A stretch of 15,406 nucleotides of DNA from Trueperaceae bacterium (GCA_040905465.1 JBBDRK010000004.1:48020-63425), one strand, 5' to 3'; counted from the stretch's first letter, positions 2,713 through 15,373 are shown. Numbers and translations: made by a program. Notes: generated by a model from the letters alone, not told the origin.

Positions 2713-3909
2713 TTGCGAAAGACCCCCCTCCCCGGCTCGGATCGGTGGCGCCTGCTGCGCCGGGTGCGGCCCAGCTATTTGCTGCTTCTCCTCGCCATCC
2801 CGTTCATCATCTACCTGTTCGCCACTGTGGAGAACTACCGCGCCGCGATGGTGTTCATCGCCCCTGGCTTGTGGACCACCATCCGCGTGACGGTGGTCGC
2901 CTATCTGGTCGCGGCCATCCTGGGTCTGGCTCTGGCCGGCCTGTTGCTGATGAAGTCGGGGCGCTCCACGTTTCCCGTCTTTCTGGCGATTTCGCTGCTG
3001 CTGGCTGCCGCCAGCGCGTTCTTCTTCACTCGGGACCGAGTGGAGTACGTTCTGGTCGGCGAGCAGCAGGGACTGGTGGCCATCCTCCAAGGCACACCGT
3101 CGAACCTGAGCCGGACGATCCAGCGCGGCCGCTTCGACGAGGACGCCGAGCCCCGCAACATCCGCGCCGTAGTCAGCGCCGAAGCCGGCCTGCAGCGCCT
3201 GGAGTCCGGCGTGGTCGAGGCAGCCTTCCTGCCCGTGTCGGAGGCCCCCGCCGACCTCCCTGTGCTGTGGCAAACCAGCTTCCTGCCACCGGACAGCAAA
3301 CGACCAGGACTGTTCACGGCGGTACTGGCGGTGCTGACCCTGCTGTTGACGTTTGCCGCATGGCAGAGCGGCAAGCACCCGCTGGCGATCTTTGCCGAGC
3401 TCTACGTCGACGCCCTGCGTGGCATTCCGATGCTGGTCATCATCCTCTACATCGGCTTCCCGGTCCAGGGGGCAGTTCGTGACATCAGCGGCGGAATGCT
3501 CGAACCGTCACGCCTGACCCGCGGAATCATCGCCATCGCCCTCGGTTACGCCGCTTACATGGCGGAGGTGTTTCGTGCCGGGATCCAGGCGATTCCCCGC
3601 GGCCAGATCGAGGCGGCCCGCTCGCTCGGTCTCGGCGGCTGGCAGACCGCTCGCTTTGTAGTGCTTCCGCAGGCGCTGCGCATCGTCATACCGCCACTAG
3701 GCAACGAATTCATCGCCATGCTCAAGGACACCTCGCTGCTGTCGCTGCTCTCCTTGCGCGAGATCACCCAGCGAACCCGCGAGTTCGCCGCGGACACCTT
3801 CGAGTATTTCCCCGCCTTCAACACGGTAGCCGTGCTCTACATCGGTCTAACTCTGGCAGCCTCCAGCCTGCTCAAGTCGGTCGAGCGCCGCAGCGAGACA
3901 CCGCGTTGA
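2713..3909 (+). CDS. Amino-acid ABC permease (HisM/GlnP type) with an inserted TM / binding-protein-like lobe / TM module
   Basis: Core motifs: GLWTTIRVT, YVDALRGIPMLV, AYMAEVFRAGIQAIPRGQIEAARSLG (EAA loop), PQALRIVIPPLGNEFIAMLKDTSL. At 398 aa it is much longer than a typical core permease. TTG start with GAGGA upstream. Confidence 0.92.
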   Translation: MRKTPLPGSDRWRLLRRVRPSYLLLLLAIPFIIYLFATVENYRAAMVFIAPGLWTTIRVTVVAYLVAAILGLALAGLLLMKSGRSTFPVFLAISLLLAAASAFFFTRDRVEYVLVGEQQGLVAILQGTPSNLSRTIQRGRFDEDAEPRNIRAVVSAEAGLQRLESGVVEAAFLPVSEAPADLPVLWQTSFLPPDSKRPGLFTAVLAVLTLLLTFAAWQSGKHPLAIFAELYVDALRGIPMLVIILYIGFPVQGAVRDISGGMLEPSRLTRGIIAIALGYAAYMAEVFRAGIQAIPRGQIEAARSLGLGGWQTARFVVLPQALRIVIPPLGNEFIAMLKDTSLLSLLSLREITQRTREFAADTFEYFPAFNTVAVLYIGLTLAASSLLKSVERRSETPR

Positions 3910-3987
3910 ATAGCACGGCGGCGAGCCGCGCTTGTCGGGAATCCGAAGTGCTTCCGCCCTGAGTCGATCCGTCATCTCATCTAGACT

Positions 3988-4398
3988 ATGGACGTGACGG
4001 GCTTCGACGACGCAGAGTATCGTCGGTGGCTGTCTCAGGCCAACCACACGAGGGACTCCGCAGGGCGTGATGCAGCCTCGGGCGACTATTCCTGGTCGTG
4101 TTTCAAATCACAGCAGGCCGGTGAGTACGCGCTACAAGCGCTCCTGCGTGGATTGGGCCAACCGGCACATGGCCACGCGCTGCGGCGCTTGCTGTCAGAA
4201 CTGATGACCCTATCGATAGAGGTGCCGGAGGCGGTCATGGAAGCCGGACAGGCGCTCGACCGACATATAGTGCCCACCACGCGATACGCCGATGCCTTTC
4301 CCGAGGGAAGCCCTCACGAGTATTACAATCTTGGCGCAGCCGAGGAGGCGCTAGGTGCAGCCGATAAAGTCATCGACTGGGTTCAAAGCGCTGCTTGA
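3988..4398 (+). CDS. HEPN domain protein (COG2250-like, MNT-associated type)
   Basis: Motifs: RRWLSQA, GDYSWSCFKSQQAGEYALQALL, GHAL..LL, LDRH..PT.RY.DAFPEGSP..YY...AEEAL. The real start may be GTG 3994, 6 nt after TAGACT. Confidence 0.88.
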   Translation: MDVTGFDDAEYRRWLSQANHTRDSAGRDAASGDYSWSCFKSQQAGEYALQALLRGLGQPAHGHALRRLLSELMTLSIEVPEAVMEAGQALDRHIVPTTRYADAFPEGSPHEYYNLGAAEEALGAADKVIDWVQSAA

Positions 4399-4539
4399 GC
4401 GGCGGCGGAAGGAACGCGACGGCCTCATCACCGCCTCGTCGAAGGCCGTGAGGAACCGAAGGGACTGCTGCCGCGCGAATTCGCCCGGCTCGCGGCGGAC
4501 GGAAAATTATGGCATCTGGAGGAGGCACTGGAACTTTAA
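4382..4539 (+). pseudogene. Internally deleted minimal nucleotidyltransferase (MNT) remnant
   Basis: One frame overlapping the HEPN stop gives ALLERRRKERDGLITA, like an MNT N-terminal helix. A different frame from 4438 gives VEGREEPKGLLPREFARLAADGKLWHLEEALEL* (TAA 4537-4539), like an MNT C-terminus. The GS-x-ARG / DxD catalytic core is absent. Confidence 0.6.
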
Positions 4540-4614: not shown

Positions 4615-5703
4615 ATGCCCGTAGCCCAGGTCGACCTCGCCGCTCTCCGACACAACCTGGAGCTGCTGCGGCGCCGACTCGAGCCGGGCTGCCGGCTGTT
4701 GGCGGCCGTCAAGGCCGGCGGCTACGGGCATGGCGCGGCGCCGGTGGCACGGGCGCTGGAAGCGGCCGGGGTGGAGTGGTTCGGCGCCGCCACTCCCGAA
4801 GAGGCGCTCGAGCTCAGGGAGGCCGGGGTACGAGGACGAATCCTGCTCCTGGGACCGGGGTTCGCACGGCTGGCCGAGCTGGTGGAGGCCGGGGTCGACC
4901 TGACCGTGTGCGATCGGGCGTCGGTCGACTCGATCAGGCACTGCGGTACGCCGGGCAAGGCACGGGTGCACCTCAAGGCGGACACCGGCATGGGCCGAAT
5001 CGGCTTGCCGGCAGCCGCAGCCCTCGAGTTGGCGAAGGAGCTGGCGAACGACCGCCGCCTGCGCTTCGAAGGCGTCTGGACTCACTTCGCCGCGGCGGAC
5101 GAAGCTGACCGCCGCTTCACGGAGATGCAGATCCAAGCCTTTGGAGAGTTGCTGGGGGAGCTCGAGCGGCTCTCGATACGCCCGCCCCTGGCGCACACCT
5201 GCAACTCAGGCGGACTGCTGGCCTTCCCGGAGGCGCATTTCGATCTGGTGCGCCCCGGAATAGCGCTCTACGGCTATCCGCCCAGTGACGAAGTCGCCGC
5301 GATCGAACCCAACTTTCGCCCGGTCATGACCGTCACGGCTCCGGTAACGTTCGTGAAGCGGGTGGCGGCGGGAACTGCGATCTCTTACGGAGCGACCTGG
5401 CGGGCACCGCGCGAAACCACCGTCGCGACGGTGAGATTCGGCTACGCCGACGGCTACCCGCGGCTGCTGGCGAATCGCGGTTGGGCGAGAGTTCATGGCC
5501 GGCGTTGCGACGTGGCCGGCCGGATCTGCATGGATCAGTTGATGCTGGACGTGGGGGATCTCGACGTCTCCCCGGGAGACCGGGTCACTCTCTTCGGGGC
5601 CGCGGGTCCTTCGGCGGGCGAGCTGGGCGCACTGGCGGGCACGGTATCGTACGAGATCCTCACCTCGGTGTCACAGCGGGTGGCACGCGTGTATCTAGAC
5701 TGA
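4615..5703 (+). CDS. alr: Alanine racemase
   Basis: AAVKAGGYGHG (PLP lysine), HLKADTGMGRIG, THFAAAD, VRPGIALYG, ISYGATW (catalytic Tyr), GYADGYPR, GRICMDQ, GTVSYEIL. Confidence 0.97.
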   Translation: MPVAQVDLAALRHNLELLRRRLEPGCRLLAAVKAGGYGHGAAPVARALEAAGVEWFGAATPEEALELREAGVRGRILLLGPGFARLAELVEAGVDLTVCDRASVDSIRHCGTPGKARVHLKADTGMGRIGLPAAAALELAKELANDRRLRFEGVWTHFAAADEADRRFTEMQIQAFGELLGELERLSIRPPLAHTCNSGGLLAFPEAHFDLVRPGIALYGYPPSDEVAAIEPNFRPVMTVTAPVTFVKRVAAGTAISYGATWRAPRETTVATVRFGYADGYPRLLANRGWARVHGRRCDVAGRICMDQLMLDVGDLDVSPGDRVTLFGAAGPSAGELGALAGTVSYEILTSVSQRVARVYLD

Positions 5704-5722
5704 GCGGCATGCGACTCGAAGC

Positions 5723-7159
5723 TCAGCCCTCATCGGCTTGAGGCTCCTGACCGACGGTTTCGCCGACTACCTTCAACTTCGCCAACACTCGTTGCACCCG
5801 GCGTTCATCGGCCTCATCGACAGTGAAGTGCACCGAGGCGAAGTCGAGCGTCTCCCCTACCCTCGGGATGTAGCCGAACTCGGAGATCAGGAAGCCTGCC
5901 AGAGTGTCGTACTCGCCTTCGTCCTCGAAGACGATCTTCAGCTCGGCGGCTACCTCCTCGAGGTGGGCCGAACCGAGGATGCGGTAGTGCCCCGCTCCGA
6001 GGTCGACGATGTCCTCGTCCTCCTCGATGTCTGTCTCGTCGTAGATCTCGCCGGTGATCTCCTCGATGATGTCTTCCAGGGTTACGACACCGGCGGTTCC
6101 TCCGAACTCGTCCACCACTACGGCGATGTGGTTCTTGCGGATGCGCATGTCGCGCAGCAGCGAGAGGATCGAAAGGGTCTCCGGTACGTAATGAGGGGAG
6201 GTCATGAGGTCGCTCACCATCGTCGACTCGAGCGCCTCGGGTTGGCCCAGGTAGGGCAGCAGGTCACGGGCGTATACGATCCCCCTGATGTTGTCGACCG
6301 TGTCGGAGTAGACCGGCAGGCGGCTCACCCGGTGTTCCGTGGTCAGCTCCAGAAGTTCTCGCAGGGTGGCGCCCTCGGCAACGGCGATCACGTCGACTCG
6401 CGGGGTCATCACTTCGCGGACAACGGTCTCCTCGAGATCGATGATGCCGCGGATCATCGCCTGCTCCTGCGCCTCGATGACGCCCGATTCCTCGGCGCTG
6501 CGCAGCATCAGCCGTAGCTCGTTCTCGGTGATGAGCGCCGCCGAGGCGGGCTCGAGCCGCAACAGGCGGAGAATCCCGTTCACCACGAAGGTAAAGAACA
6601 GGCCTACCGGATAGAGAACTATCGACAGTACGTATACCGGCAGGATCACTGCCCGCGAGAACGACACCGCATTGTGAACGGCGATCGACTTGGGCGTGAT
6701 CTCGCCGAAGATCAGCACCAACAGCGTCATCACCCCGGTCGCGTAGCCCACGGCGAGCGATTCGGAGAAGCCGAGCGAGCGCGACATGCCGATGCTTATC
6801 TGGGTAACGAGGGCGGTGGCGGCGATGTTTACCAGGTTGTTGCCGATGAGCAATGTTGTGATGAAACGGGTGGGCTCGCGCTCGAGCAACGCGAAGACTC
6901 CCGAGGGGTCGCGCCCGTCCTCACGAAGCTGCCGGATCTTCCACTCGCCGAGCGCCGTCAGCGCGGTTTCGGAGCCGGACAACAGGCCCGACAGGAGCAG
7001 CAACAGTACCACCAGGGCGATCTGACCGAAGCCGATGCTGGCCGTCTCGGCGCCCTGCGCCAGCACGATCCCCATCAACGGCATCAGCAGCAGCGCCGGA
7101 ACCACGCCCATGCGCAGCCTGCCAGGGCGTTGCTGTCGGGCGTATCGACTGTCATCCAT
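5723..7159 (-). CDS. CNNM/DUF21-CBS-CorC (HlyC/CorC family) Mg2+/Co2+ transport-associated membrane protein
   Basis: SGLLSGSETALTAL, TLLIGNNLVNI, LIFGEITPKS, VREVMTPRVD, SRLPVY, VVDEFGGTAGVVTLEDIIEEITGEIYDE, YDTLAGF. Start reassigned to ATG 7159 (MDDSRY) because the longer ORF overlaps the divergent kinase gene. TGCTACAAT lies upstream. Confidence 0.93.
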   Translation of the reverse strand: MDDSRYARQQRPGRLRMGVVPALLLMPLMGIVLAQGAETASIGFGQIALVVLLLLLSGLLSGSETALTALGEWKIRQLREDGRDPSGVFALLEREPTRFITTLLIGNNLVNIAATALVTQISIGMSRSLGFSESLAVGYATGVMTLLVLIFGEITPKSIAVHNAVSFSRAVILPVYVLSIVLYPVGLFFTFVVNGILRLLRLEPASAALITENELRLMLRSAEESGVIEAQEQAMIRGIIDLEETVVREVMTPRVDVIAVAEGATLRELLELTTEHRVSRLPVYSDTVDNIRGIVYARDLLPYLGQPEALESTMVSDLMTSPHYVPETLSILSLLRDMRIRKNHIAVVVDEFGGTAGVVTLEDIIEEITGEIYDETDIEEDEDIVDLGAGHYRILGSAHLEEVAAELKIVFEDEGEYDTLAGFLISEFGYIPRVGETLDFASVHFTVDEADERRVQRVLAKLKVVGETVGQEPQADEG

Positions 7160-7170
7160 CGGTTGGCCGG

Positions 7171-7260
7171 ATTGTAGCACAGGCCCGCTCGGCAGCCGGA
7201 CCCCGGGTCGGCGCCAGCTTGCCGCCGACCCGGGTTTATACTCTTGCGAGGTTGTGGAGG
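7171..7260. promoter_or_regulatory. Divergent promoter region (CBS gene / kinase operon) with a central 12-bp inverted repeat
   Basis: Minus-strand extended -10 TGCTACAAT (7179-7171), plus-strand -10 TATACT (7237-7242) and RBS GGAGG (7256-7260). Inverted repeat CCCGGGTCGGCG-9nt-CGCCGACCCGGG at 7202-7234. Confidence 0.6.
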
Positions 7261-7264
7261 TTGC

Positions 7265-7867
7265 ATGTCGTACATAGTCGTCGAGGGAGTTATCGGCGTG
7301 GGCAAGACGAGCCTCAGCCGGCTCCTGGCCGAGGAGTTGAGCGCCCGGCTGGTGCTGGAGGTGGTGGAGGAGAATCCGTTCCTCGCGCAGTTCTACGAGT
7401 CCCCTGACAGGTACGCGTTCCAGGTGCAGACGTTCTTCCTGCTGTCGCGCTTCAGGCAGCTGCAGGAGCTCGGCCAGCAGCCGCTGTTCGAGCGGCACAC
7501 TGTCGCCGACTACCTCTTCGACAAGGACTTCATCTTCGCGTCACTGAACCTCGTCGGCGCTGAATGGGAGCTGTATCGCGAGCTCTACGATCACCTCCGT
7601 CCGCGGCTGACCACCCCCGACCTGGTCGTATACCTGCGGGCCGATCCCGACCTGTTGCTGCAGCGCATCGCCCAGCGTGGCCGCCCCTTCGAGCGCACTA
7701 TCGAGGCCGATTACCTCCGGCGCCTCGGCACCGCTTACGACGAATACTTCGCTCAGTACCAAGGTCCGCTCAAGCGTATCGAGGCGGCCGCGGTGGACTT
7801 CGTGGGCAGTCCCGGAGACCGCCGCGCCATCGTCGACCAGATCCTGGAACGCGCGAAGGCGGCCTGA
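7265..7867 (+). CDS. dgk: Deoxynucleoside kinase, Dgk-like
   Basis: ATG 7265 after GGAGG. P-loop EGVIGVGKTS, ENPFL..FY, FQVQTFFLLSRFRQ, ADYLFDKDFIFA (DY type, as in Bacillus Dgk), PDLVVYL, RGRPFE. Substrate specificity is inferred. Confidence 0.85.
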   Translation: MSYIVVEGVIGVGKTSLSRLLAEELSARLVLEVVEENPFLAQFYESPDRYAFQVQTFFLLSRFRQLQELGQQPLFERHTVADYLFDKDFIFASLNLVGAEWELYRELYDHLRPRLTTPDLVVYLRADPDLLLQRIAQRGRPFERTIEADYLRRLGTAYDEYFAQYQGPLKRIEAAAVDFVGSPGDRRAIVDQILERAKAA

Positions 7868-7868
7868 G

Positions 7869-8522
7869 GTGTACGTGGCCGTGGCCGGCAACATCGGAGC
7901 CGGCAAGTCGACGCTTACCCGCCTGCTTGCCGACACCTTCGGTCTGGCGCCGGTTTTCGAGGCGGTGGAGGAGAACCCGTATCTGGAGGATTTCTATCGC
8001 GACATGCGGCAGTTCGCCTTCCACTCCCAGATGTTCTTCCTGGGCAAGCGGCTCGAACAGCACCTGGAGCAGGTCAACCCGGCGCAGCGGGTGATCCAGG
8101 ACCGCACCATCTTCGAAGACGCCGCGATCTTCGCCCGCAACCTGCACGAGGAACGGATCATGTCGGAGCGCGACTATCTGAGCTACCTGCAGATGTACAG
8201 GGCGATCAGCCGGACCCTGCGGCCGCCGGACCTGCTCATCTATCTCGAGGCGAGCCTGCCGACACTTCGCCGTCATATCGACCAACGTGGGAGATCGTAC
8301 GAGGCCGACATCGAAGATGCCTACCTGCAGCGGCTCGACAGTCTGTACCGGGCCTGGATCGGCGACTACGACCTGTCCGAGCTCCTGGTGATACCGGCAG
8401 ACGAGCTGGACTTCGTGCACAGCGACGAGGACCGTGAGACGGTGTTGGAGATGGCGGAACGTCGCGGTCTTACCCGTCCCATGGTGGCTGTACCGAAGGC
8501 GGACTCGCTGGTGCAAGGATGA
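7869..8522 (+). CDS. dck: Deoxynucleoside kinase, Dck-like (dAdo/dCyd kinase type)
   Basis: GTG 7869, 1 nt after the upstream stop. AGNIGAGKST, ENPYLEDFY, QDRTIFEDAAIFA, PDLLIYL, RGRSYE. Substrate specificity is inferred. Confidence 0.85.
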   Translation: MYVAVAGNIGAGKSTLTRLLADTFGLAPVFEAVEENPYLEDFYRDMRQFAFHSQMFFLGKRLEQHLEQVNPAQRVIQDRTIFEDAAIFARNLHEERIMSERDYLSYLQMYRAISRTLRPPDLLIYLEASLPTLRRHIDQRGRSYEADIEDAYLQRLDSLYRAWIGDYDLSELLVIPADELDFVHSDEDRETVLEMAERRGLTRPMVAVPKADSLVQG

Positions 8523-8580
8523 CCTCGGGCGTAGCGGTAAAGGCGCCGAAGCGCGGGCCGGGCGGGTCTCGGGAGAGCCG

Positions 8581-10044
8581 GTGAAACTGAGCGAGCTGGC
8601 AAAAGAGTCGCTGGGCATCGTGGAGGCGTTGCCGCCGGTCGACGTGACCGGCGTGTCGCAAGACCATCGGAAGGTCGCTCCCGGACACGTGTTCGTGGCG
8701 CGCGTGGGCTCGAAGTTCGACGGCCACCGCTATGCCCGGTTGGCGATCGAGCGGGGCGCGGTGGCGGTCGTGGGGATTCATGACGGGGTGCCGACCCTCC
8801 CCTGGAACTCTACGCCCTATCTGCGGGTGGCTGATGACCGCGAGGCCGTCGCCCGTCTGGCGGCAACCTTCCACCGCTACCCGTCGTGCGCCATGACCAC
8901 CATCGGCGTGACCGGCACCGACGGCAAGACTACCGTGTCGTTCCTGCTCCACCATCTGCTTTCCGCCTCGCTGCCATGCGGCCTCATCAGCACCGCCGCC
9001 GTGCGCTCGGCAGACGCTCCGCTCCCCCTGGAAGGGCATTTCACCACACCCGAGGCAACCGAGGTACAGGCCTATCTGGCCGCCTTTCGCGACGACGGTT
9101 GCAGCCACGCCGTGGTCGAGTCGAGCTCCCACGCGCTGTCGTTGCGCAGGCTCGACCAGGTCGATTACGACGTGGCGGTATGGACCAACCTCAGCGCCGA
9201 GCATCTCGACCATCACGGGTCTTTGGAGGCGTATCGCGACGCCAAGCTCGAGCTTGTGCGCAGGTCAGGCACGTCGGTTCTCAATCTCGACGACCAGCAC
9301 TTTCCCGCTTTCGCGGACGCCTCGCAAGAGGTGGTGAGCTACGGCCTCGCCGACGATGCGACCTGGCGGGCCGGCGCCGTCAGCGAGTCCGCCACCGGAT
9401 TGGAGTTCGACGTGCACGTAGCCGGCGACGTGCTCAGGGCGGCGCTGCCGATGCTCGGCGCATTCAACGTCCACAACGCCCTGGCCGCCCTGGCAGCAGC
9501 GCACGTTTGCGGCGTCTCGCCGGCCGCAGCGGTGGAGCGGCTGGCGCGCTTCCCCGGCGTACCCGGCAGGATGCAGGTCGTTCATGCAGGGGCCTTTGCC
9601 GTGGTGGTGGACTTCGCCCATACCGGACCCGCTCTGGAAAAGGCGCTGGCGGCGTTGCGGCCGGCCGCCGAAGGCCGGATTCTGCTCGTCGTCGGCGCCG
9701 CAGGCGAGCGCGATCCCGGCAAACGGGGCCCGCTGGGTCGAGCGGCGGCGAATGGCGCAGACCTGATCTTTTTCACCGAGGAGGACCACCGCAGCGAGTC
9801 GCTGGATGCCATTCTCGACGAGTTGACACTCGCGGCCAGGGAAGCCGGGGCGGAGGGCGAGCGAATTCACCGGGTACCGAACCGGCGTGAGGCGATCGCC
9901 GCCGCGGTGGCGGCGGCGCGCGAGGGAGACCTGGTGTTGCTGGCCGGCAAAGGGCACGAGTCGAGCCTCGAACGCGCTTACGAGACGATTCCCTGGGACG
10001 AGGCGGCGGAAGCGAGACGGCAGCTCGAACAGAAGCAAGGCTAA
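8581..10044 (+). CDS. murE: UDP-MurNAc-L-Ala-D-Glu:diamino acid ligase (MurE)
   Basis: GTG 8581 after GGGAGAG. G..FDGH, GVTGTDGKTT, TTPEA, ESSSHAL, TNLSAEHLDHHG, PGRMQ, VDFAHT, GERDPGKR, LAGKGHE. Confidence 0.95.
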   Translation: MKLSELAKESLGIVEALPPVDVTGVSQDHRKVAPGHVFVARVGSKFDGHRYARLAIERGAVAVVGIHDGVPTLPWNSTPYLRVADDREAVARLAATFHRYPSCAMTTIGVTGTDGKTTVSFLLHHLLSASLPCGLISTAAVRSADAPLPLEGHFTTPEATEVQAYLAAFRDDGCSHAVVESSSHALSLRRLDQVDYDVAVWTNLSAEHLDHHGSLEAYRDAKLELVRRSGTSVLNLDDQHFPAFADASQEVVSYGLADDATWRAGAVSESATGLEFDVHVAGDVLRAALPMLGAFNVHNALAALAAAHVCGVSPAAAVERLARFPGVPGRMQVVHAGAFAVVVDFAHTGPALEKALAALRPAAEGRILLVVGAAGERDPGKRGPLGRAAANGADLIFFTEEDHRSESLDAILDELTLAAREAGAEGERIHRVPNRREAIAAAVAAAREGDLVLLAGKGHESSLERAYETIPWDEAAEARRQLEQKQG

Positions 10045-10054
10045 AATGCGACTC

Positions 10055-11338
10055 ATGCGCCCCGTAGACGTCATACTTGCAAAACGCAACGGTGAGAGGC
10101 ACGCGCGCGAGGTACTCCGGGAGTTCATCGGCGACTACGTGGCCGGGGAGTTGCCCGACTACCAGGTTGCGGCCTGGTTGATGGCCGTTTGCTTCCAGGG
10201 GATGGACGAACGCGAAACGGCCGACCTCACCGAGGTGATGGCCGCCTCGGGCGACACCCTCGACCTCTCCGAACTCTCTCATACCGTGGACAAGCACTCT
10301 ACCGGTGGTGTGGGAGACAAGACGAGCCTGGTGCTCGCGCCGCTGCTGGCAGAGGCTGGCGGCACGGTCGCCAAGATGAGCGGCCGGGGACTCGGCCATA
10401 CCGGCGGAACGGTTGACAAGCTGGAGAGCATCCCCGGCTTTCGTAGCGAGCTGTCTCACGAAGAGTTCCTGAAGCAGGCAGCCGCCATCGGCGTGGTGGT
10501 CAGCGGACAGTCGAAGCAGATGGCTCCCGCAGACGGCCTGATGTACGCCCTGCGCGACGCTACCGGAACCGTCGAGTCGCTGCCACTGATCGCAGCGTCG
10601 ATCATGAGCAAGAAGCTCGCCGGTGGCGCCGAATCGATAGTGCTGGACGTCAAGGTCGGCAGCGGTGCTTTCCTGCGCACCCGAGACCAGGCGCGCGCGC
10701 TGTCGAAGCAGATGGTATCGATCGGCCGTCACTCGGGACGTCGGGTCCGCGCCCTCCTTACCGGCATGGAGCAACCGTTGGGGAACGCCGTCGGGAACGC
10801 CCTCGAGGTCCAGGAGGCTGCTCGCTGCCTTCGCGGCGAGGGACCCGCCGATCTCACCGAGCTGTGCCTGGCGCTGGCGGAACAGGTCCTGGACGCTTCC
10901 GGACTGGACGGCCGCCGGGAACATCTGATCGAGCTCCTGTCGAGCGGGCGCGCATATGGGCGTTTCGAAAGCTGGGTGGAAGCGCAGGGAGGCGATCCGG
11001 CCGCGGTCGACCGGCTCGAGCTGGCTCCGGGCCGGGAAACGATCACGAGCCCCCGCAGCGGCGCGCTCAGCTCACTCGACGCCCTTGCGCTCGGCCGCGC
11101 CGTTAGTCTGCTCGGCGGCGGTCGGAGCCGCAAGGGTGAGGCGATCGACTACGGGGTAGGCGCCGTGATTCACGGCAAGATCGGTGACGAGCTGATGCAA
11201 GGCGATCCGCTGGTGACATTGCTCCATCGCGACGGACGGGGACTAGGCGAGGCAAGGGCGCTCGTGGCGGCGTCGATCTCGGTTTCCGATCGCGCGGCGG
11301 TACCACCGCTCGTTCTGGAGATCAACCCAGTCGACTGA
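10055..11338 (+). CDS. pdp: Pyrimidine-nucleoside / thymidine phosphorylase
   Basis: MRPVDVILAKRNG N-terminus, PDYQVAAWLMA, DKHSTGGVGDK, KMSGRGLGHTGGTVDKLESIPG, LIAASIMSKKLA, LDVKVGSGAF. ATG 10055 lies 7 nt after TAAAAT; ATG 10046 is an alternative start. Confidence 0.96.
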   Translation: MRPVDVILAKRNGERHAREVLREFIGDYVAGELPDYQVAAWLMAVCFQGMDERETADLTEVMAASGDTLDLSELSHTVDKHSTGGVGDKTSLVLAPLLAEAGGTVAKMSGRGLGHTGGTVDKLESIPGFRSELSHEEFLKQAAAIGVVVSGQSKQMAPADGLMYALRDATGTVESLPLIAASIMSKKLAGGAESIVLDVKVGSGAFLRTRDQARALSKQMVSIGRHSGRRVRALLTGMEQPLGNAVGNALEVQEAARCLRGEGPADLTELCLALAEQVLDASGLDGRREHLIELLSSGRAYGRFESWVEAQGGDPAAVDRLELAPGRETITSPRSGALSSLDALALGRAVSLLGGGRSRKGEAIDYGVGAVIHGKIGDELMQGDPLVTLLHRDGRGLGEARALVAASISVSDRAAVPPLVLEINPVD

Positions 11339-11392
11339 GCCAGCAAGCCGGCTGACGCCTGTTCCGGCGCGGTCACTTCGGTTGGGCTCGAG

Positions 11393-12199
11393 TCAGTTGT
11401 GCTTGGCGCAGGAGAAGCGGCCGTGAGCGCTCATCAGTTCCGGCTCCGGCATGAACGCTCCGTTTCTCGGAGCGACGATCCGGCGCCGTGCTACCCGCGG
11501 TTCGGACCACGGTTCACCCAGGGCGAAACCTTGGAAGAAGGACACGCCGCGCGAAGCGAGTCGCGCCAGCACATCGATGTCCTCGACCCCTTCGGCGACC
11601 AGCAGGAGGCCGCTGTCGGTGGCCTCGTCCAGGAACTCCTGCGCCTCGCTGGGCGTGTGCTCGGCGGCCAGGGCCGGCAGGACGCTGCGGTCGAGCTTCA
11701 GACCGTGAACCGCGCCTCGCAGGGAGGATATCCGCTGTTGCGAACCGGGCGTGATGTCATCGAGGAAGATCCTGACTCCGCTGGCGGCCAGACCTTCGAG
11801 TACTCGCGGCAACTCCGGTTGATCGATAATCGGGTCTTCCGTTAGCTCCACCATCAGGCGGCGCCGTACTCTCAGCGGAGCCTGGCCGATGACGGCGGTC
11901 GCTACAGGCAACTCGACCTGTCGCGGGCTGAGATTCACGGACAGCGCCGGCAGGTAGGGATCGGCGTCCAGGCGCGCCAGGGCGAACTGCAGGGAAAGGC
12001 GCGTGAACGACTCGATCCGCTCGGGGTGCAGCAGGCCGGCCATTATCACGGACGGTCCCTGGATGGTTCCGTCCTGCAACGACCGGCGCGCGAGCGTCTC
12101 GTACGCCAGCAACCGTTTGCCGTCAGCGGCGAGTATCGGTTGGAACTGGAACGTCAGGCCGAATAATGGATTCTGAGAGTTCTTGACGTTGATCGACAC
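11393..12199 (-). CDS. Stand-alone EAL domain protein (c-di-GMP phosphodiesterase-like)
   Basis: FQPI, YETLAR (EAL variant), SVNLSP, VELTE, FLDD, LKLDRS, VAEGVE, FQGFALGEP. No GGDEF or sensor domain. The start codon is uncertain (GTG, no clear RBS). Confidence 0.9.
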   Translation of the reverse strand: MSINVKNSQNPLFGLTFQFQPILAADGKRLLAYETLARRSLQDGTIQGPSVIMAGLLHPERIESFTRLSLQFALARLDADPYLPALSVNLSPRQVELPVATAVIGQAPLRVRRRLMVELTEDPIIDQPELPRVLEGLAASGVRIFLDDITPGSQQRISSLRGAVHGLKLDRSVLPALAAEHTPSEAQEFLDEATDSGLLLVAEGVEDIDVLARLASRGVSFFQGFALGEPWSEPRVARRRIVAPRNGAFMPEPELMSAHGRFSCAKHN

Positions 12200-12220
12200 A
12201 GTCGGGAGGGGATGGGTCGA

Positions 12221-12397
12221 TCAGCCGGGGTCGACATCGTCGGGGTTGCTTCCACCTGCGAAGCTGACCTGAACGTTGTCGAGGCTGGCGAAACCGATCG
12301 CCGCGAGCGGGGTGGCGGCAAGGACCAGCGCGAGCGCCAGCTTGGCGGCAATGCTACGAATTACGGTGGGGGCGGCGAATTCTGTGGGGGTCATCAT
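12221..12397 (-). CDS. Small putatively secreted peptide precursor, 58 aa (not in the ORF track)
   Basis: GGAGG RBS 6 nt before the ATG. Translates as MMTPTEFAAPTVIRSIAAKLALALVLAATPLAAIGFASLDNVQVSFAGGSNPDDVDPG*: basic residues, a hydrophobic core, small-residue cleavage sites and a short acidic tail. Codons are mostly G/C-ending. The stop is 21 nt upstream of the EAL gene on the same strand. Confidence 0.75.
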   Translation of the reverse strand: MMTPTEFAAPTVIRSIAAKLALALVLAATPLAAIGFASLDNVQVSFAGGSNPDDVDPG

Positions 12398-12428
12398 GGT
12401 ATTCCTCCGGGGGCTTGCTTCGGACGGA

Positions 12429-12513
12429 AGGTTACGCCCTGGCTGGTTGAATTCTCGTTGAGTTTTTGAGCCGGCCTACTTCCACGGGAATTCGACTGCT
12501 CCTCGGCCACACT
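12429..12513. promoter_or_regulatory. Back-to-back activator-type promoters with paired 16-bp boxes
   Basis: Minus strand: TCAACGAGAATTCAAC (12461-12446), 11 nt, TAACCT (12434-12429). Plus strand: TCCACGGGAATTCGAC (12481-12496), 11 nt, CACACT (12508-12513). The boxes are 13/16 identical. Confidence 0.6.
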
Positions 12514-12560
12514 CTGTTGCAGGCAGCGCAACCATTCAACGCCTAGCCGAGGAGACGAAC

Positions 12561-12737
12561 ATGGACAGATATCAGGCACGCAGGTTATTCGAGGCCAGCC
12601 GGCGCTTCCCATGCAGAGCGGGTGGAATATTGGTACGGGATGTCGAGCTCGCGGCGATGATTGCGACGGTCAAAGCGGAGCGCCGTGCCCCGGCCCAGCA
12701 GCGCCCATACCAGTGCATGGAGAGTCGTGCGGGCTGA
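12561..12737 (+). CDS. Small hypothetical protein, 58 aa (not in the ORF track)
   Basis: GAGGAG RBS (12549-12554) 6 nt before the ATG. MDRYQARRLFEASRRFPCRAGGILVRDVELAAMIATVKAERRAPAQQRPYQCMESRAG*. It lies downstream of the boxed plus-strand promoter. Confidence 0.5.
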   Translation: MDRYQARRLFEASRRFPCRAGGILVRDVELAAMIATVKAERRAPAQQRPYQCMESRAG

Positions 12738-12919
12738 AGGACGGACCTGGACGGTCCCTGCCGGCTGACGGGAAAGCAATCGCATGGCCGGCTCACGCGT
12801 TTTCGGCATGCCGCCGGCGCCGCACGGAGCGGGCCAAACGCTTGCGAACCGCCGCGGAATCGTTATCGGCGACCGGCAAGACCGTGAGGTCAGGCTCCGC
12901 TTGACATATCCTGGAGTCC

Positions 12920-15373
12920 GTGTGGCTCGAAGATCGCTTCCGCCTGTGCCCGGTTTCGGGCAAGGCTCTGGTACTGCACGGCGGTGAGGAGTACGGTGCG
13001 CCCTTCCTCGTCGACCGCTTGCGCCGGGAGCGTGCGGTGGCCTGGCTGGCATTCACGCCGGCAGAGGCGAGCGACCGGGTGGCGGCAGGCAACAAGCTTG
13101 CGGACGCAGTCAACGAGGCGGTAGAAGGAAATCTCCTCCAGCATGCGCTGCCGTACCTCGTTCACCTGCGCTCGCTGAGCCTGCGCCGCACCCAGCTTCC
13201 GCCGTTTACCCTGGTCGTGTCGGGCGCCGACCTCGCACCCGAGTTCGCCCAGGCGGCGGCGCAGGCGTGCCGCAGTGGATTCGGCCTGTGGCTCCTGGCA
13301 AGCGACGGGCCCTCGGGCTTCGATGGGCCGGCGGGCATCGATGCCCTGCACCTGCGGCCCTCCGACCTGCGCCTGACGCTCGCTGAAGCGAGACGACTCG
13401 CACCGAGCGGAATCGGCGACGGCGTGGTGGCTCGGATTCACGACCTCACCGAGGGCGCCTACACCCGCTTTCTCGGCGAGATGCACAAAGAGTCGGGTCT
13501 GCCCGAGATAATGGTTCCGCACGCTGAAGGCTGGGTCTACCCGGAGCATGAGGCGCGCCGGGAACATCCCGAGGACGTTGTGGAGGCGCTGCTGCGGCTC
13601 GGCCGGCAGGTCGACGCGCTGGAAGTCGCCGCCGAGTCCCTTCCCGGGCGCGTCGAGGAGTTGCTGCACGAGGCCGGTCCGGAGTTCCAGAACCAGGGTC
13701 TCCTTCCGCGCCTGCACCTGTTGCTTTCCACGTTGCCACCACCTTACGACGAGCGCGAGCGCACGCTGGAATGGCGGCTCGTGGCAGCGCATCAGGCTGG
13801 CGCGGCGCAACAGGTTGCCAAGCAGGTACGCCGGTATTTGAGCGTTCACGAAGCGCCCGAGTTGCGTGCCCGCTACGCGGCTTTCGCGCCATACTCCGAG
13901 GGCCTGAACCAAGCGCGGCGGGCAGCAACCGCCCTCCCTTCCCCCCTGACGCTTTGGCAGTACGGGCGAATGCTTCCCGATCCCAGCCAGGGCATCGAGC
14001 TTCTGACCCGCAGCGTTTCGCAGGCGGAACTGGAGGGCGACCCGTACGCCTGCGTGCGAGCGGCAGGCACGCTGGCGGCGAGATTCCTGCATCTAGGAGA
14101 CTTCCATTCCGGTAGATCGTGGGCCGACTGGGGACTCCAACTGTACGACGAGAACGCCCTCAGAGACGGGATAAGGCGCCTGCACCTTTTCAAGGAGCTT
14201 GCTTTCGCACGCACGATGCTGGGCGAGCTGAGCGGGCTGCGCGAGCAACTTCAGGATGGCCTCGCCACGGTCGAGAACGTGCTACCCGACATGGCGTCCA
14301 GCTACCGCGACGCCCTTGCCGACCTCGAGCGGCTCGAAGCCGACCCGCTAGTGGCGGCCGAGTACACTAAAGCGAACCTGGACACCTCCCCGCGTAGACA
14401 GAAAGGTCTCCGCGCTCACCAGCACGTGAGAAGCCTCCTGGAGCTCGGCAAGGTTGCAGAGGCCGCCGATGTGGCGCGTGCCGCCGCCGCTCTGAGCGCC
14501 GGGGCATCCGTGATGCAGGATCTCAGGGCGCGCCTGGCGGTCGGCATGGTGCAAGCCTTCGAAGATCCTGACAGTGCCGCCGGCACACTGACAGAGATCA
14601 TGGAAAACCCGGAGTTGATCTTCGACCAGCGGGCGCGAGCAGCCCTCCACTACCTGCTGGCGCGGCCGTCCGGAGCCGGCGATATCCCCGAGAACCTGCG
14701 AAGCAAGCTGGAGAACCTGAGCGACACCGCCCTGCGCGTCCTGAGTGGTCCGCCGGAAGCGTTCCACAAAATCTGGATGGACCTCACCGGCGGGCGCAAT
14801 GCCGCGCTCGAGTTGCGCGTGCTCGGCAAGACCAGTGCACGGCTGGAAGGAGTGGAGTTGCGCCTCACCCGCCGGCAGTGGGAGATACTAGTAGCGCTGG
14901 CATTGCATCCGGAAGGGCTGGGGTATGACGCTTTGCATGCATTCTTGCTGCAGGACGATAACCGCCTCAGCCCGGGTACGCTACGCTCCCATGTCAGCCA
15001 CCTGCGCTCCATCGTCCCTATCAGCGACAACCCGTACCGCATCGAGGTGCCCTACACGCTCGACATCGCCGCGGTCCAGGCTCACCTGCGAGAGGGCAAG
15101 GTGCGCCAGGCCATCGCGCTCGTGAACGGCAGCGTGCTGCCGAGCAGCAGCCTTCCCGGGATACGCGACACGGGCGAGCAGCTCGACCAGGCTCTCCGCG
15201 AGAGCGTACTGACCAGCGGCGACCCGGAGGCGCTCTACTGCGCCGCCAGCCTCTGGAACGACGACCTGGAGGTCTGGGAAGCCACTCTCGCGGCCCTGCA
15301 CCCGCGCGATCCGCGGGTGCCGCTGCTGCGTGCCCGCGTGCAGTCGCTGCGTCACGAATACGGCGCGGCCTGA
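12920..15373 (+). CDS. Large transcriptional regulator: degenerate MalT-like STAND N-terminus, helical (TPR-like) sensor region, C-terminal OmpR/SARP-type winged helix with BTAD-like tail
   Basis: MalT-like landmarks: LVLHGGEEYGAPFL (Walker A position), VAWLAF, LVVSGADL (Walker B position), DLRLTLAEA, LTEG. The middle is Ala/Leu-rich and helical. C-terminus: LELRVLG...LTRRQWEILVALALHPEGL...TLRSHVSHLR...PYRI...D...GSVLPSS..PGI. Confidence 0.82.
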   Translation: MWLEDRFRLCPVSGKALVLHGGEEYGAPFLVDRLRRERAVAWLAFTPAEASDRVAAGNKLADAVNEAVEGNLLQHALPYLVHLRSLSLRRTQLPPFTLVVSGADLAPEFAQAAAQACRSGFGLWLLASDGPSGFDGPAGIDALHLRPSDLRLTLAEARRLAPSGIGDGVVARIHDLTEGAYTRFLGEMHKESGLPEIMVPHAEGWVYPEHEARREHPEDVVEALLRLGRQVDALEVAAESLPGRVEELLHEAGPEFQNQGLLPRLHLLLSTLPPPYDERERTLEWRLVAAHQAGAAQQVAKQVRRYLSVHEAPELRARYAAFAPYSEGLNQARRAATALPSPLTLWQYGRMLPDPSQGIELLTRSVSQAELEGDPYACVRAAGTLAARFLHLGDFHSGRSWADWGLQLYDENALRDGIRRLHLFKELAFARTMLGELSGLREQLQDGLATVENVLPDMASSYRDALADLERLEADPLVAAEYTKANLDTSPRRQKGLRAHQHVRSLLELGKVAEAADVARAAAALSAGASVMQDLRARLAVGMVQAFEDPDSAAGTLTEIMENPELIFDQRARAALHYLLARPSGAGDIPENLRSKLENLSDTALRVLSGPPEAFHKIWMDLTGGRNAALELRVLGKTSARLEGVELRLTRRQWEILVALALHPEGLGYDALHAFLLQDDNRLSPGTLRSHVSHLRSIVPISDNPYRIEVPYTLDIAAVQAHLREGKVRQAIALVNGSVLPSSSLPGIRDTGEQLDQALRESVLTSGDPEALYCAASLWNDDLEVWEATLAALHPRDPRVPLLRARVQSLRHEYGAA

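Follow-up and report, generated by a model that had tools for sequence, protein, structure and literature searches.

Here we describe a four-gene locus of a Trueperaceae bacterium that we consider, with somewhat better than even confidence, to be a self-regulated peptide-signalling module of this family, in which a small secreted propeptide would give rise to the ligand of a large cytoplasmic regulator that in turn would control a predicted cyclic di-GMP (c-di-GMP) phosphodiesterase. The sequence studied, hereafter the window, is a stretch of 15,406 nucleotides (nt; G000:C4:48020-63425), and the contig ends 33 nt past the regulator gene. The module comprises two divergent gene pairs. The propeptide gene (12221..12397, minus strand; 58 amino acids, aa) is followed, 21 nt after its stop codon, by the second gene of the same operon, which encodes an EAL-only protein (11393..12199, minus strand; 268 aa). 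On the plus strand, a gene that we denote X (12561..12737; 58 aa) lies upstream of the regulator gene (12920..15373; 817 aa, GTG start). The three open reading frames (ORFs) reported in an initial annotation of this DNA, of 268, 58 and 817 aa, are all present where it placed them; the fourth conserved gene, X, was overlooked there.

The 58-aa propeptide consists of a basic N-terminus followed by a hydrophobic stretch, a variable pro-region and a conserved C-terminal tail, GGSNPDDVDPG, and has no family match in Pfam or NCBIfam. Among the first 20 regulator loci, seven carry a divergent small ORF together with an EAL gene, and these seven small ORFs share the basic N-terminus, the hydrophobic stretch and a tail ending in D-[P/V]-G. 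A profile of 16 copies of the peptide, searched against the 128 Trueperaceae genomes, found 56 full-length matches (E < 1e-5), spread over 54 of these genomes. In a phylum-wide sample, the profile matched 43 of 102 Trueperaceae genomes, plus the window's own genome, and none of the 198 genomes from four sister families. One copy (L040, G016) reached only E 0.027 with a 14-sequence profile but E 1.3e-13 in the family-wide genome search. The sequence GGAGG is found 5-10 nt upstream of the chosen start in 18 of the 19 distinct peptide loci, and in the window this Shine-Dalgarno sequence occupies 12404..12408 (minus strand), 6 nt before the ATG. The precursors range from 46 to 107 aa, with the automatically picked starts of L119 and L127 probably wrong or containing N, and the signal-peptide-like N-terminus is kept in all copies. 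A public protein collection holds 44 clusters of the peptide, none with a Pfam family, whose members are named 'hypothetical protein' or, once, 'uncharacterized membrane protein'.

The conserved part of the peptide is its C-terminal 11-13 residues, which end in D-[P/V/A]-G. Residues A47, D56 and G58 are invariant among the 16 copies. All 40 non-redundant copies have Asp at position -3 from the C-terminus and Gly at -1, and in 32 of these 40 the net charge of the last 12 residues is -2 or -3. This core occurs in tandem in seven of the 49 precursors listed. One of them (L114) contains four cores of a 12-residue unit with no spacer, whereas in the remaining six the cores are separated by spacers of 8-11 residues (four copies in L125, three in L117, at least three in L127, the locus of which contains N, and two each in L120, L121 and L122). 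The repeat boundaries delimit the core: its first residue is the one that follows the invariant Ala or, in later copies, the Gly that ends the copy before, and its last residue is the terminal Gly. In the window, the predicted mature core accordingly lies directly after Ala47 and is encoded at 12224..12256 (minus strand); the mature peptide GGSNPDDVDPG proposed in the initial annotation coincides with the tandem repeat unit of the relatives. Tandem core copies look like the mark of a processed peptide, and the presence of spacers between them implies proteolytic release. RRNPPA propeptides with tandem pheromone copies are described in the available parts of two reports (PMC11343458; PMC9765709). 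Two genomes, G049 (C14, C178) and G063 (C249, C101), contain two full modules each, with differing peptide tails (in G049, for example, ...HQAGDYDPG and ...GQKGEIDVG); these double modules could be natural cross-talk test pairs or the products of mixed bins.

For the analysis of gene order, we compared 60 loci, namely eight from an earlier set and 52 around peptide matches (four of them weak), of which 58 have a peptide match at E < 0.01. The regular occurrence of small signal-peptide ORFs, variable in their tails, beside regulator homologues, which the initial annotation had named as a check of its reading, was found: among the 58 peptide loci, the EAL gene is next on the same strand in 56 and the divergent regulator is present in 53. 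The two loci without the EAL gene are one in which the contig ends 23 nt away and the weak match L128, and the five without the regulator are four in which the sequence ends within 520 nt and, again, L128. The latter (G023; peptide E 1.7e-4) is probably a false match, with the tail DTGGG and no EAL, regulator or X gene nearby. In another locus (L129, G043), the EAL, X and regulator genes are present and the peptide is below the threshold. The gene X profile matches 58 of the 60 loci, the two without X being a contig end and L128.

Gene X is predicted to encode a cytoplasmic protein, has its own Shine-Dalgarno sequence, and is conserved in the N-terminal 40 residues of its product. It has no match in Pfam or NCBIfam and no usable match in the ESM Atlas, and its profile finds nothing better than E 1.7 among PDB sequences; the 62 clusters of X in the public collection are all unnamed or 'hypothetical' and lack Pfam assignments. 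In one locus (L045, G015:C13), X and the regulator are separated by an inserted gene for a DmpA-type Peptidase_S58 protein (5528-6583, minus strand; Pfam E 2.8e-108), which could encode a processing or degrading peptidase or be an unrelated insertion. The gap between X and the regulator in L040 (G016) appears to resemble that of L045. In the window, this gap (12738-12919, 182 nt) contains the short direct repeats TGCGGGCTGAAGG and TGCCGGCTGACGG, 31 nt apart, and a terminator-like hairpin on the minus strand (12799-12781).

A variant of the module, detected in two complete genomes, is rearranged and has no EAL gene: an X homologue stands divergent to a small signal-peptide ORF different from that of the module and convergent with a regulator of 39-40% identity. 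The genes of this variant lie at 6131-6268 (minus), 6383-6583 (plus) and 6926-9337 (minus) in L038 (G024:C1; X homologue E 7e-9) and at 6415-6558 (minus), 6537-6884 (plus) and 7048-9459 (minus) in L039 (G005:C1; X homologue E 7e-12). In one of the two small ORFs, the sequence GDGDIDPG occurs with a further 11 residues after it. Distant paralogues of the regulator (33% identity or less) are accompanied by no relatives of the peptide or X. The second copy of the regulator family in the genome of the window (L043, G000:C18:20000-33000; 5498-7939, plus strand; about 33% identity, with one in-frame TAG) likewise has no relative of the peptide or X beside it; its neighbors at 3441-3773, 3833-4111 and 4218-4538 (minus strand) are Transglut_core3, PqqD and GerE/LuxR-type genes, a set typical of lasso-peptide clusters.

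The AlphaFold model of the regulator (predicted local distance difference test score, pLDDT, 91.4; predicted template-modelling score, pTM, 0.88) contains an alpha/beta domain (residues 1-150; 12920..13369) followed by helices, an array of TPR-like helical repeats (residues 217-622; 13568..14785), a winged helix (residues 630-714) and four further helices that extend to residue 813. Pfam searches of the regulator yielded only a sub-threshold match to Trans_reg_C at residues 646-701 (E 0.003; 18.1 against a cutoff of 26.2 bits) and failed to detect BTAD; most of its homologues carry the precomputed Pfam label PF27103. In Foldseek searches of the PDB, the best match for the whole chain is the STAND-TPR protein 6mfv_A (E 3.4e-8, 658 columns), followed by TPR peptide binders such as LGN/Pins and designed TPR proteins. 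The C-terminal 195 residues, folded alone (pLDDT 93.3), produced six matches at E 0.001 or below, all to AfsR SARP chains and EmbR (E 1.4e-6 to 3.9e-5; query template-modelling score, TM, 0.55-0.69). The top one is AfsR in a transcription activation complex (8hvr_I; E 1.4e-6, TM 0.69), the others including 8k60 and the EmbR structures 2ff4 and 2fez; the remaining matches of this part are plain OmpR/PhoB winged helices with E > 0.01. The C-terminal region (residues 625-817; 14792..15370) is thus predicted to be a SARP domain, with an OmpR-type winged helix and BTAD-like helices. The modelled structure suggests that the regulator is assembled from the building blocks of large SARPs in the order NOD-TPR-SARP, which is the order of MalT. 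The initial annotation had postulated a MalT/SARP-like scaffold with the DNA-binding domain at the C-terminus, and the fold matches to 6mfv (whole chain) and to AfsR and EmbR (C-terminus) agree with it. A functional Walker A motif reads GxxxxGK[ST]; throughout the regulator family, the P-loop site reads GGExYGAP (GGEEYGAP in the window), with Ala-Pro in place of Lys-Ser/Thr, and ATP binding by the STAND-like domain is unlikely because the P-loop lysine is absent.

Binding of the tail to the regulator, which the initial annotation had put forward for co-folding, was supported by structure prediction. When the whole regulator was co-folded with residues 29-58 of the peptide, the median of the interface score ipSAE was 0.65 (0.68, 0.65 and 0.55), compared to 0.01 for the best control, with a pLDDT of 37-42 for the partner; the mark of 0.65 is reached by 116 of 157 solved complexes and by 2 of 215 mismatched pairs. 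At least 23% of the contacts are shared between the runs. On the peptide side, the predicted interface consists of residues 49-50 and 52-58, that is, the conserved tail. On the regulator side, it involves residues 287-288, 291, 318-319, 321-322, 325, 329, 343, 346-347, 350-353, 380, 384 and 387, so that the predicted pocket is encoded at 13778..14080. Five of these residues, R318, W346, Q347, R350 and R380, are the same in every one of the 49 module regulators. The two regulators of the variant module keep the pocket residues, with the Trp changed to Tyr or Phe, and in the paralogues without peptide and X the pocket residues are mostly replaced. In the model, the conserved Arg and Gln residues face the invariant Asp(-3) and the free C-terminus, which makes for a coherent picture.

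Co-variation at one pair of positions in the two proteins points to the same interface. Raw mutual information was dominated by fast-evolving columns, and corrected mutual information and independent pairs were used in its place. Residue 322 of the regulator, which contacts peptide residue 57 (position -2) in the predicted complex, is Thr in regulators paired with Ala or Pro at -2 and mostly Ala or Ser in those paired with Val; it ranks second of 739 columns by corrected mutual information with position -2. Among seven independent pairs that differ at -2, delineated on a tree built without column 322, residue 322 changed in the same direction in 5.8 and in the opposite direction in 0, and was unchanged in 1.2 (sign test, p ~ 0.03). 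In an unbiased scan of 563 variable columns, 322 was the best (5.84/0), the runner-up scoring 3.72. For the aromatic character of position -4, columns 290 and 322 rank third and fourth of 563, which is too weak to claim. Together, the co-fold and the single strong co-varying contact support binding of the peptide by the regulator, as far as predicted structures can.

The intergenic regions between the peptide gene and X contain repeats resembling SARP operators. The heptamer CGCTTCA is present in 35 of 42 non-redundant intergenic regions, whereas the highest count of any 7-mer in 30 shuffles was 18. The sense strand of the peptide carries two TGAAGCG-like heptamers, 11 nt apart and each with no more than one mismatch, in 43 of the 49 intergenic regions, and in 42 of these 43 a TAnnnT sequence follows the pair at exactly 10 nt. 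A mirror pair facing the X-regulator operon is found in 38 of the 49, with TAnnnT at a distance of 10 nt (34 regions) or 9 nt (four regions). SARP boxes are described in the available text of PMC10936776 as direct repeats 11 or 22 bp apart, the 3' repeat being 8 bp from the -10 element. By their sequence and spacing, the repeats reported here have this geometry, doubled into a palindrome that would serve two divergent promoters.

In the genus of the window, the heptamers are GTTGAAT and GTTGAGT (12446..12463, 11 nt from start to start), which occupy the same place and phase as the repeats elsewhere and represent the putative SARP box of the peptide-EAL promoter. The putative -10-like element of this leftward promoter, TAACCT (12429..12434, minus strand), lies 10-11 nt further on the peptide strand and is placed as TAnnnT is with respect to the repeats in relatives. 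A third heptamer (12465-12471) was dropped from consideration, being 8 nt rather than 11 nt from the second. An inverted heptamer, TTCAACG (12535..12541, plus strand), is located 19 nt before the ATG of X but is weak, since neither a second copy in phase nor a TAnnnT at 10 nt accompanies it. The recognition helix of the window's regulator reads RSHVSHLR, compared to R-[G/A]-M-M-T-R-L-R in the majority of the regulators, and two loci with other heptamers (L042 and L088; GTTGCAG and TTTCAG[C/T]) have a third version of the helix. The operator heptamer and the recognition helix thus change together across genera, in only three classes. The paired promoter boxes that the initial annotation placed in this region do not hold up as sigma-70 consensus sites (a scan of 11300-13000 found no intergenic site and a single match inside the EAL gene); what does hold is a divergent promoter-like architecture, conserved in the 49 intergenic regions compared.

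The 268-aa protein consists of a single EAL domain (Pfam E 1.6e-27, residues 15-230), with no membrane or extracytoplasmic part. Catalysis by EAL domains depends on a signature of Glu, Arg, Asn, Glu-x-x-Glu, Asp-Asp, Lys, Glu-x-x-Glu and Gln residues. In the 55 EAL orthologues of the module, E34, R38, N89, E118, E121, D147, D148, K168, E203, E206 and Q223 are each conserved in at least 90%. The EAL motif itself reads ETL in the window, with EAL as the family consensus, and the nearest solved relative is an active-type EAL domain (2r6o/3n3t). By its sequence, the protein is likely an active c-di-GMP phosphodiesterase. The genome contains 13 GGDEF and five EAL matches, and the EAL protein of the module is the only stand-alone one because the other four EAL domains share long frames with GGDEF domains. 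Peptide uptake by the cell is plausible because the genome has 31 matches to SBP_bac_5 solute-binding proteins; among the loci examined, no importer gene is linked to the module.

The mechanism that we propose for the module is as follows. The propeptide would be exported through its signal peptide (Sec), and cleavage after the invariant Ala (or Gly) would free the acidic 11-13-residue core ending in D-[P/V/A]-G. The core would be re-imported into the cell and would bind, via its free C-terminus and Asp(-3), to the invariant Arg/Trp/Gln pocket in the TPR array of the cytoplasmic regulator. Ligand binding would relieve autoinhibition and free the C-terminal SARP domain, a logic similar to that of MalT, in which autoinhibition is relieved by ligand. 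The SARP domain would occupy the 11-nt-phased heptamer pairs beside the -10 boxes of the two divergent promoters and activate the peptide-EAL operon, as well as the X-regulator operon in most genera, creating positive feedback. At high peptide concentration, the EAL phosphodiesterase would lower the level of c-di-GMP. The computations directly support the reality of the small gene, the synteny of the four genes, the repetition of the core, the geometry of the operator and its co-change with the recognition helix, the assigned folds, the predicted pocket and the co-variation of 322 with -2. We infer export, the cleavage site, re-import and the enzyme activity, and activation rather than repression is judged solely by the position of the SARP boxes.

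Several observations weigh against this reading. Gene X, although part of the conserved module, has no assigned role, and in the genus of the window there is no convincing rightward SARP-box promoter. An acidic 12-residue peptide would have to cross the complex envelope of Deinococcota twice. The tail is fairly conserved across genera, with invariant D and G, and in this respect is less 'private' than typical RRNPP pheromones. The co-fold was obtained from unpaired alignments and with the low pLDDT of the partner given above. Clear co-variation is confined to one position of the peptide, amounting to one pair rather than a network; scans for positions -5 (acidic), -6 (Gly) and -2 (Pro) placed no interface column near the top. 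In one metatranscriptome run, a 154-nt contig with one mismatch maps to 11494-11647 inside the EAL gene and is the only RNA match, the peptide gene being uncovered; strand and level cannot be read from such contigs, which might also stem from carried-over DNA. Finally, SARPs classically activate biosynthetic clusters, and the paralogue in the same genome stands beside genes of lasso-peptide type.

The last point bears on the main alternative, which we consider unlikely, namely that the product of the small gene is itself what the cell secretes for use, for instance as an antimicrobial, metal-binding or matrix peptide, its production being switched on by a SARP-type pathway activator whose TPR array senses something else. 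Multi-core precursors are also known among ribosomally made natural products, and the 33%-identical paralogue beside Transglut_core3 and PqqD genes would fit such a role. SARPs are described as cluster-situated activators in the available text of two reports (PMC10936776, PMC10972967). Against this, the conserved module includes no modifying enzyme, exporter or immunity gene, the part of the peptide that the co-fold seats in the pocket with its invariant residues is precisely the conserved tail, residue 322 co-varies with position -2 of the tail, and the pocket is lost in paralogues without the peptide. These binding data are silent, in turn, on where binding takes place, and would equally suit a precursor or tail that binds the regulator inside the cell before export, such that what the module gauges would be not cell density but how much peptide the cell makes or is able to secrete. 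The pocket seems built for a free C-terminal carboxylate, which the precursor has too, and the module lacks a dedicated importer; still, signal-peptide-like N-termini are kept in all copies and tandem cores with spacers imply proteolytic release, which makes binding before export quite improbable in our assessment.

A further alternative is that the small protein is anchored in the membrane by an uncleaved hydrophobic segment and modulates the EAL protein or X instead of serving as the ligand of the regulator. Its gene is probably co-transcribed with the EAL gene, across the gap of 21 nt, and one source names a homologue as a membrane protein. The EAL protein, however, has no membrane or extracytoplasmic part, repeated cores with spacers are unlike a membrane anchor, and the two-genome variant module retains a peptide-like ORF, X and the regulator yet has no EAL gene, so that we give this explanation very little credence. 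Finally, the window holds 108 ORFs of at least 50 aa, mostly spurious, and the 58-aa frame could in principle be one more chance ORF in GC-rich DNA. The profile matches in 54 genomes, the conserved Shine-Dalgarno sequence, the invariant tail and the fixed synteny argue otherwise, and we treat the chance reading as practically excluded because the peptide is conserved across genomes; by this comparative evidence, the ORF is a real gene.

The leftward neighbors of the module in the window are housekeeping genes, encoding a thymidine/pyrimidine-nucleoside phosphorylase, MurE and a CNNM/CorC transporter. Between the transporter gene and murE is a 282-aa ORF (7770-8618, minus strand) with no match in Pfam or NCBIfam. 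An Rfam scan of the whole window gave zero matches. Homologues of the regulator and the peptide bear the names Trueperaceae or Deinococcales, in keeping with the placement in Deinococcota that the initial annotation had suggested. In public records, the peptide, X and the regulator are annotated as hypothetical proteins only.

In the available portions of three reports (PMC10075063, PMC9765709, PMC11343458), peptide quorum sensing through cytoplasmic TPR proteins is treated as a trait of Firmicutes, their phages and plasmids. We found no description of a module like the present one in the literature searched, which lacks most subscription journals. It is a possibility to which we give slightly less than even chances that Trueperaceae independently invented import-type peptide quorum sensing, with a Sec-exported, sometimes multi-core propeptide that yields an acidic 12-mer, a pseudo-ATPase STAND-TPR-SARP receptor and a palindromic pair of SARP-box promoters, coupling cell density to the breakdown of c-di-GMP. 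If true, this would be the first system of such logic outside Firmicutes, with a separate origin on a STAND/SARP scaffold; it would include the first gene-encoded peptide ligand for SARP and MalT-type regulators and would tie the turnover of c-di-GMP directly to a peptide signal. The predictions that follow from the module are sharp, consisting of a defined 11-13-mer, five pocket residues, the specificity pair 322/-2 and a defined operator, and the multi-core precursors and the variants of heptamer and recognition helix represent natural experiments on the evolution of signal and operator specificity.

The individual parts of the module resemble different known systems. The EAL protein is similar to the stand-alone EAL enzymes TBD1265 (2r6o/3n3t) and YahA/PdeL, each with one EAL domain that keeps the catalytic signature, but differs from them in being encoded under a peptide gene in one operon and in the ETL variant of its motif. 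MalT and the STAND-TPR protein 6mfv share with the regulator a NOD, a helical-repeat sensor and a C-terminal DNA-binding effector. The repeat sensor of MalT binds a small ligand, whereas the ligand proposed here is a gene-encoded peptide; furthermore, the effector of MalT is of the LuxR type rather than a SARP, and the P-loop of the module regulator is degenerate.

Similarity to AfsR and other large SARPs extends to the building blocks and, with the module sites being putative, to the 11-nt-phased direct repeats beside a -10 box. The order of domains is SARP-NOD-TPR in AfsR and NOD-TPR-SARP in the module regulator, in which the SARP domain occupies residues 625-817 of 817. The operator of the module, unlike that of AfsR, is a palindrome of two repeat pairs for divergent promoters. 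SARP hosts are actinomycetes and the host of the module belongs to Deinococcota. To our knowledge, AfsR has no known peptide ligand. The available text of PMC10936776 describes the large SARPs as composed of SARP (winged helix and BTAD), NOD and TPR blocks and AfsR as an ATPase activated by ATP, in contrast to the module regulator, which is without the Walker A lysine.

In its overall logic, the module comes closest to the RRNPP/RRNPPA systems (Rap-Phr, PlcR-PapR, NprR-NprX, AimR-AimP), which likewise combine an adjacent small propeptide gene with a signal in the C-terminal part of the propeptide, a cytoplasmic receptor and autoregulation, the last three as proposed for the module. The mature peptide of RRNPP systems is re-imported and bound inside the TPR domain of the receptor; in the module, the co-fold would place the peptide within a TPR-type array. 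A profile of 35 regulators, compared to all PDB sequences, retrieved only a PhoB-family winged helix (E 0.0016), and no RRNPP structure is among the 42 PDB matches listed by Foldseek (ranks to 50), whereas RRNPP receptors are homologous to Rap, NprR, PlcR, PrgX or AimR. RRNPP receptors have an N-terminal HTH or no DNA-binding domain and come from Firmicutes and the mobile elements of these, whereas the module regulator has a C-terminal SARP domain and comes from Deinococcota. The module also adds an N-terminal STAND-like domain, an acidic 11-13-residue core with an invariant D-x-G end, an EAL output and gene X. As judged from these sequence and fold comparisons, the module is not a member of the RRNPP family, although it would work like the RRNPP systems.

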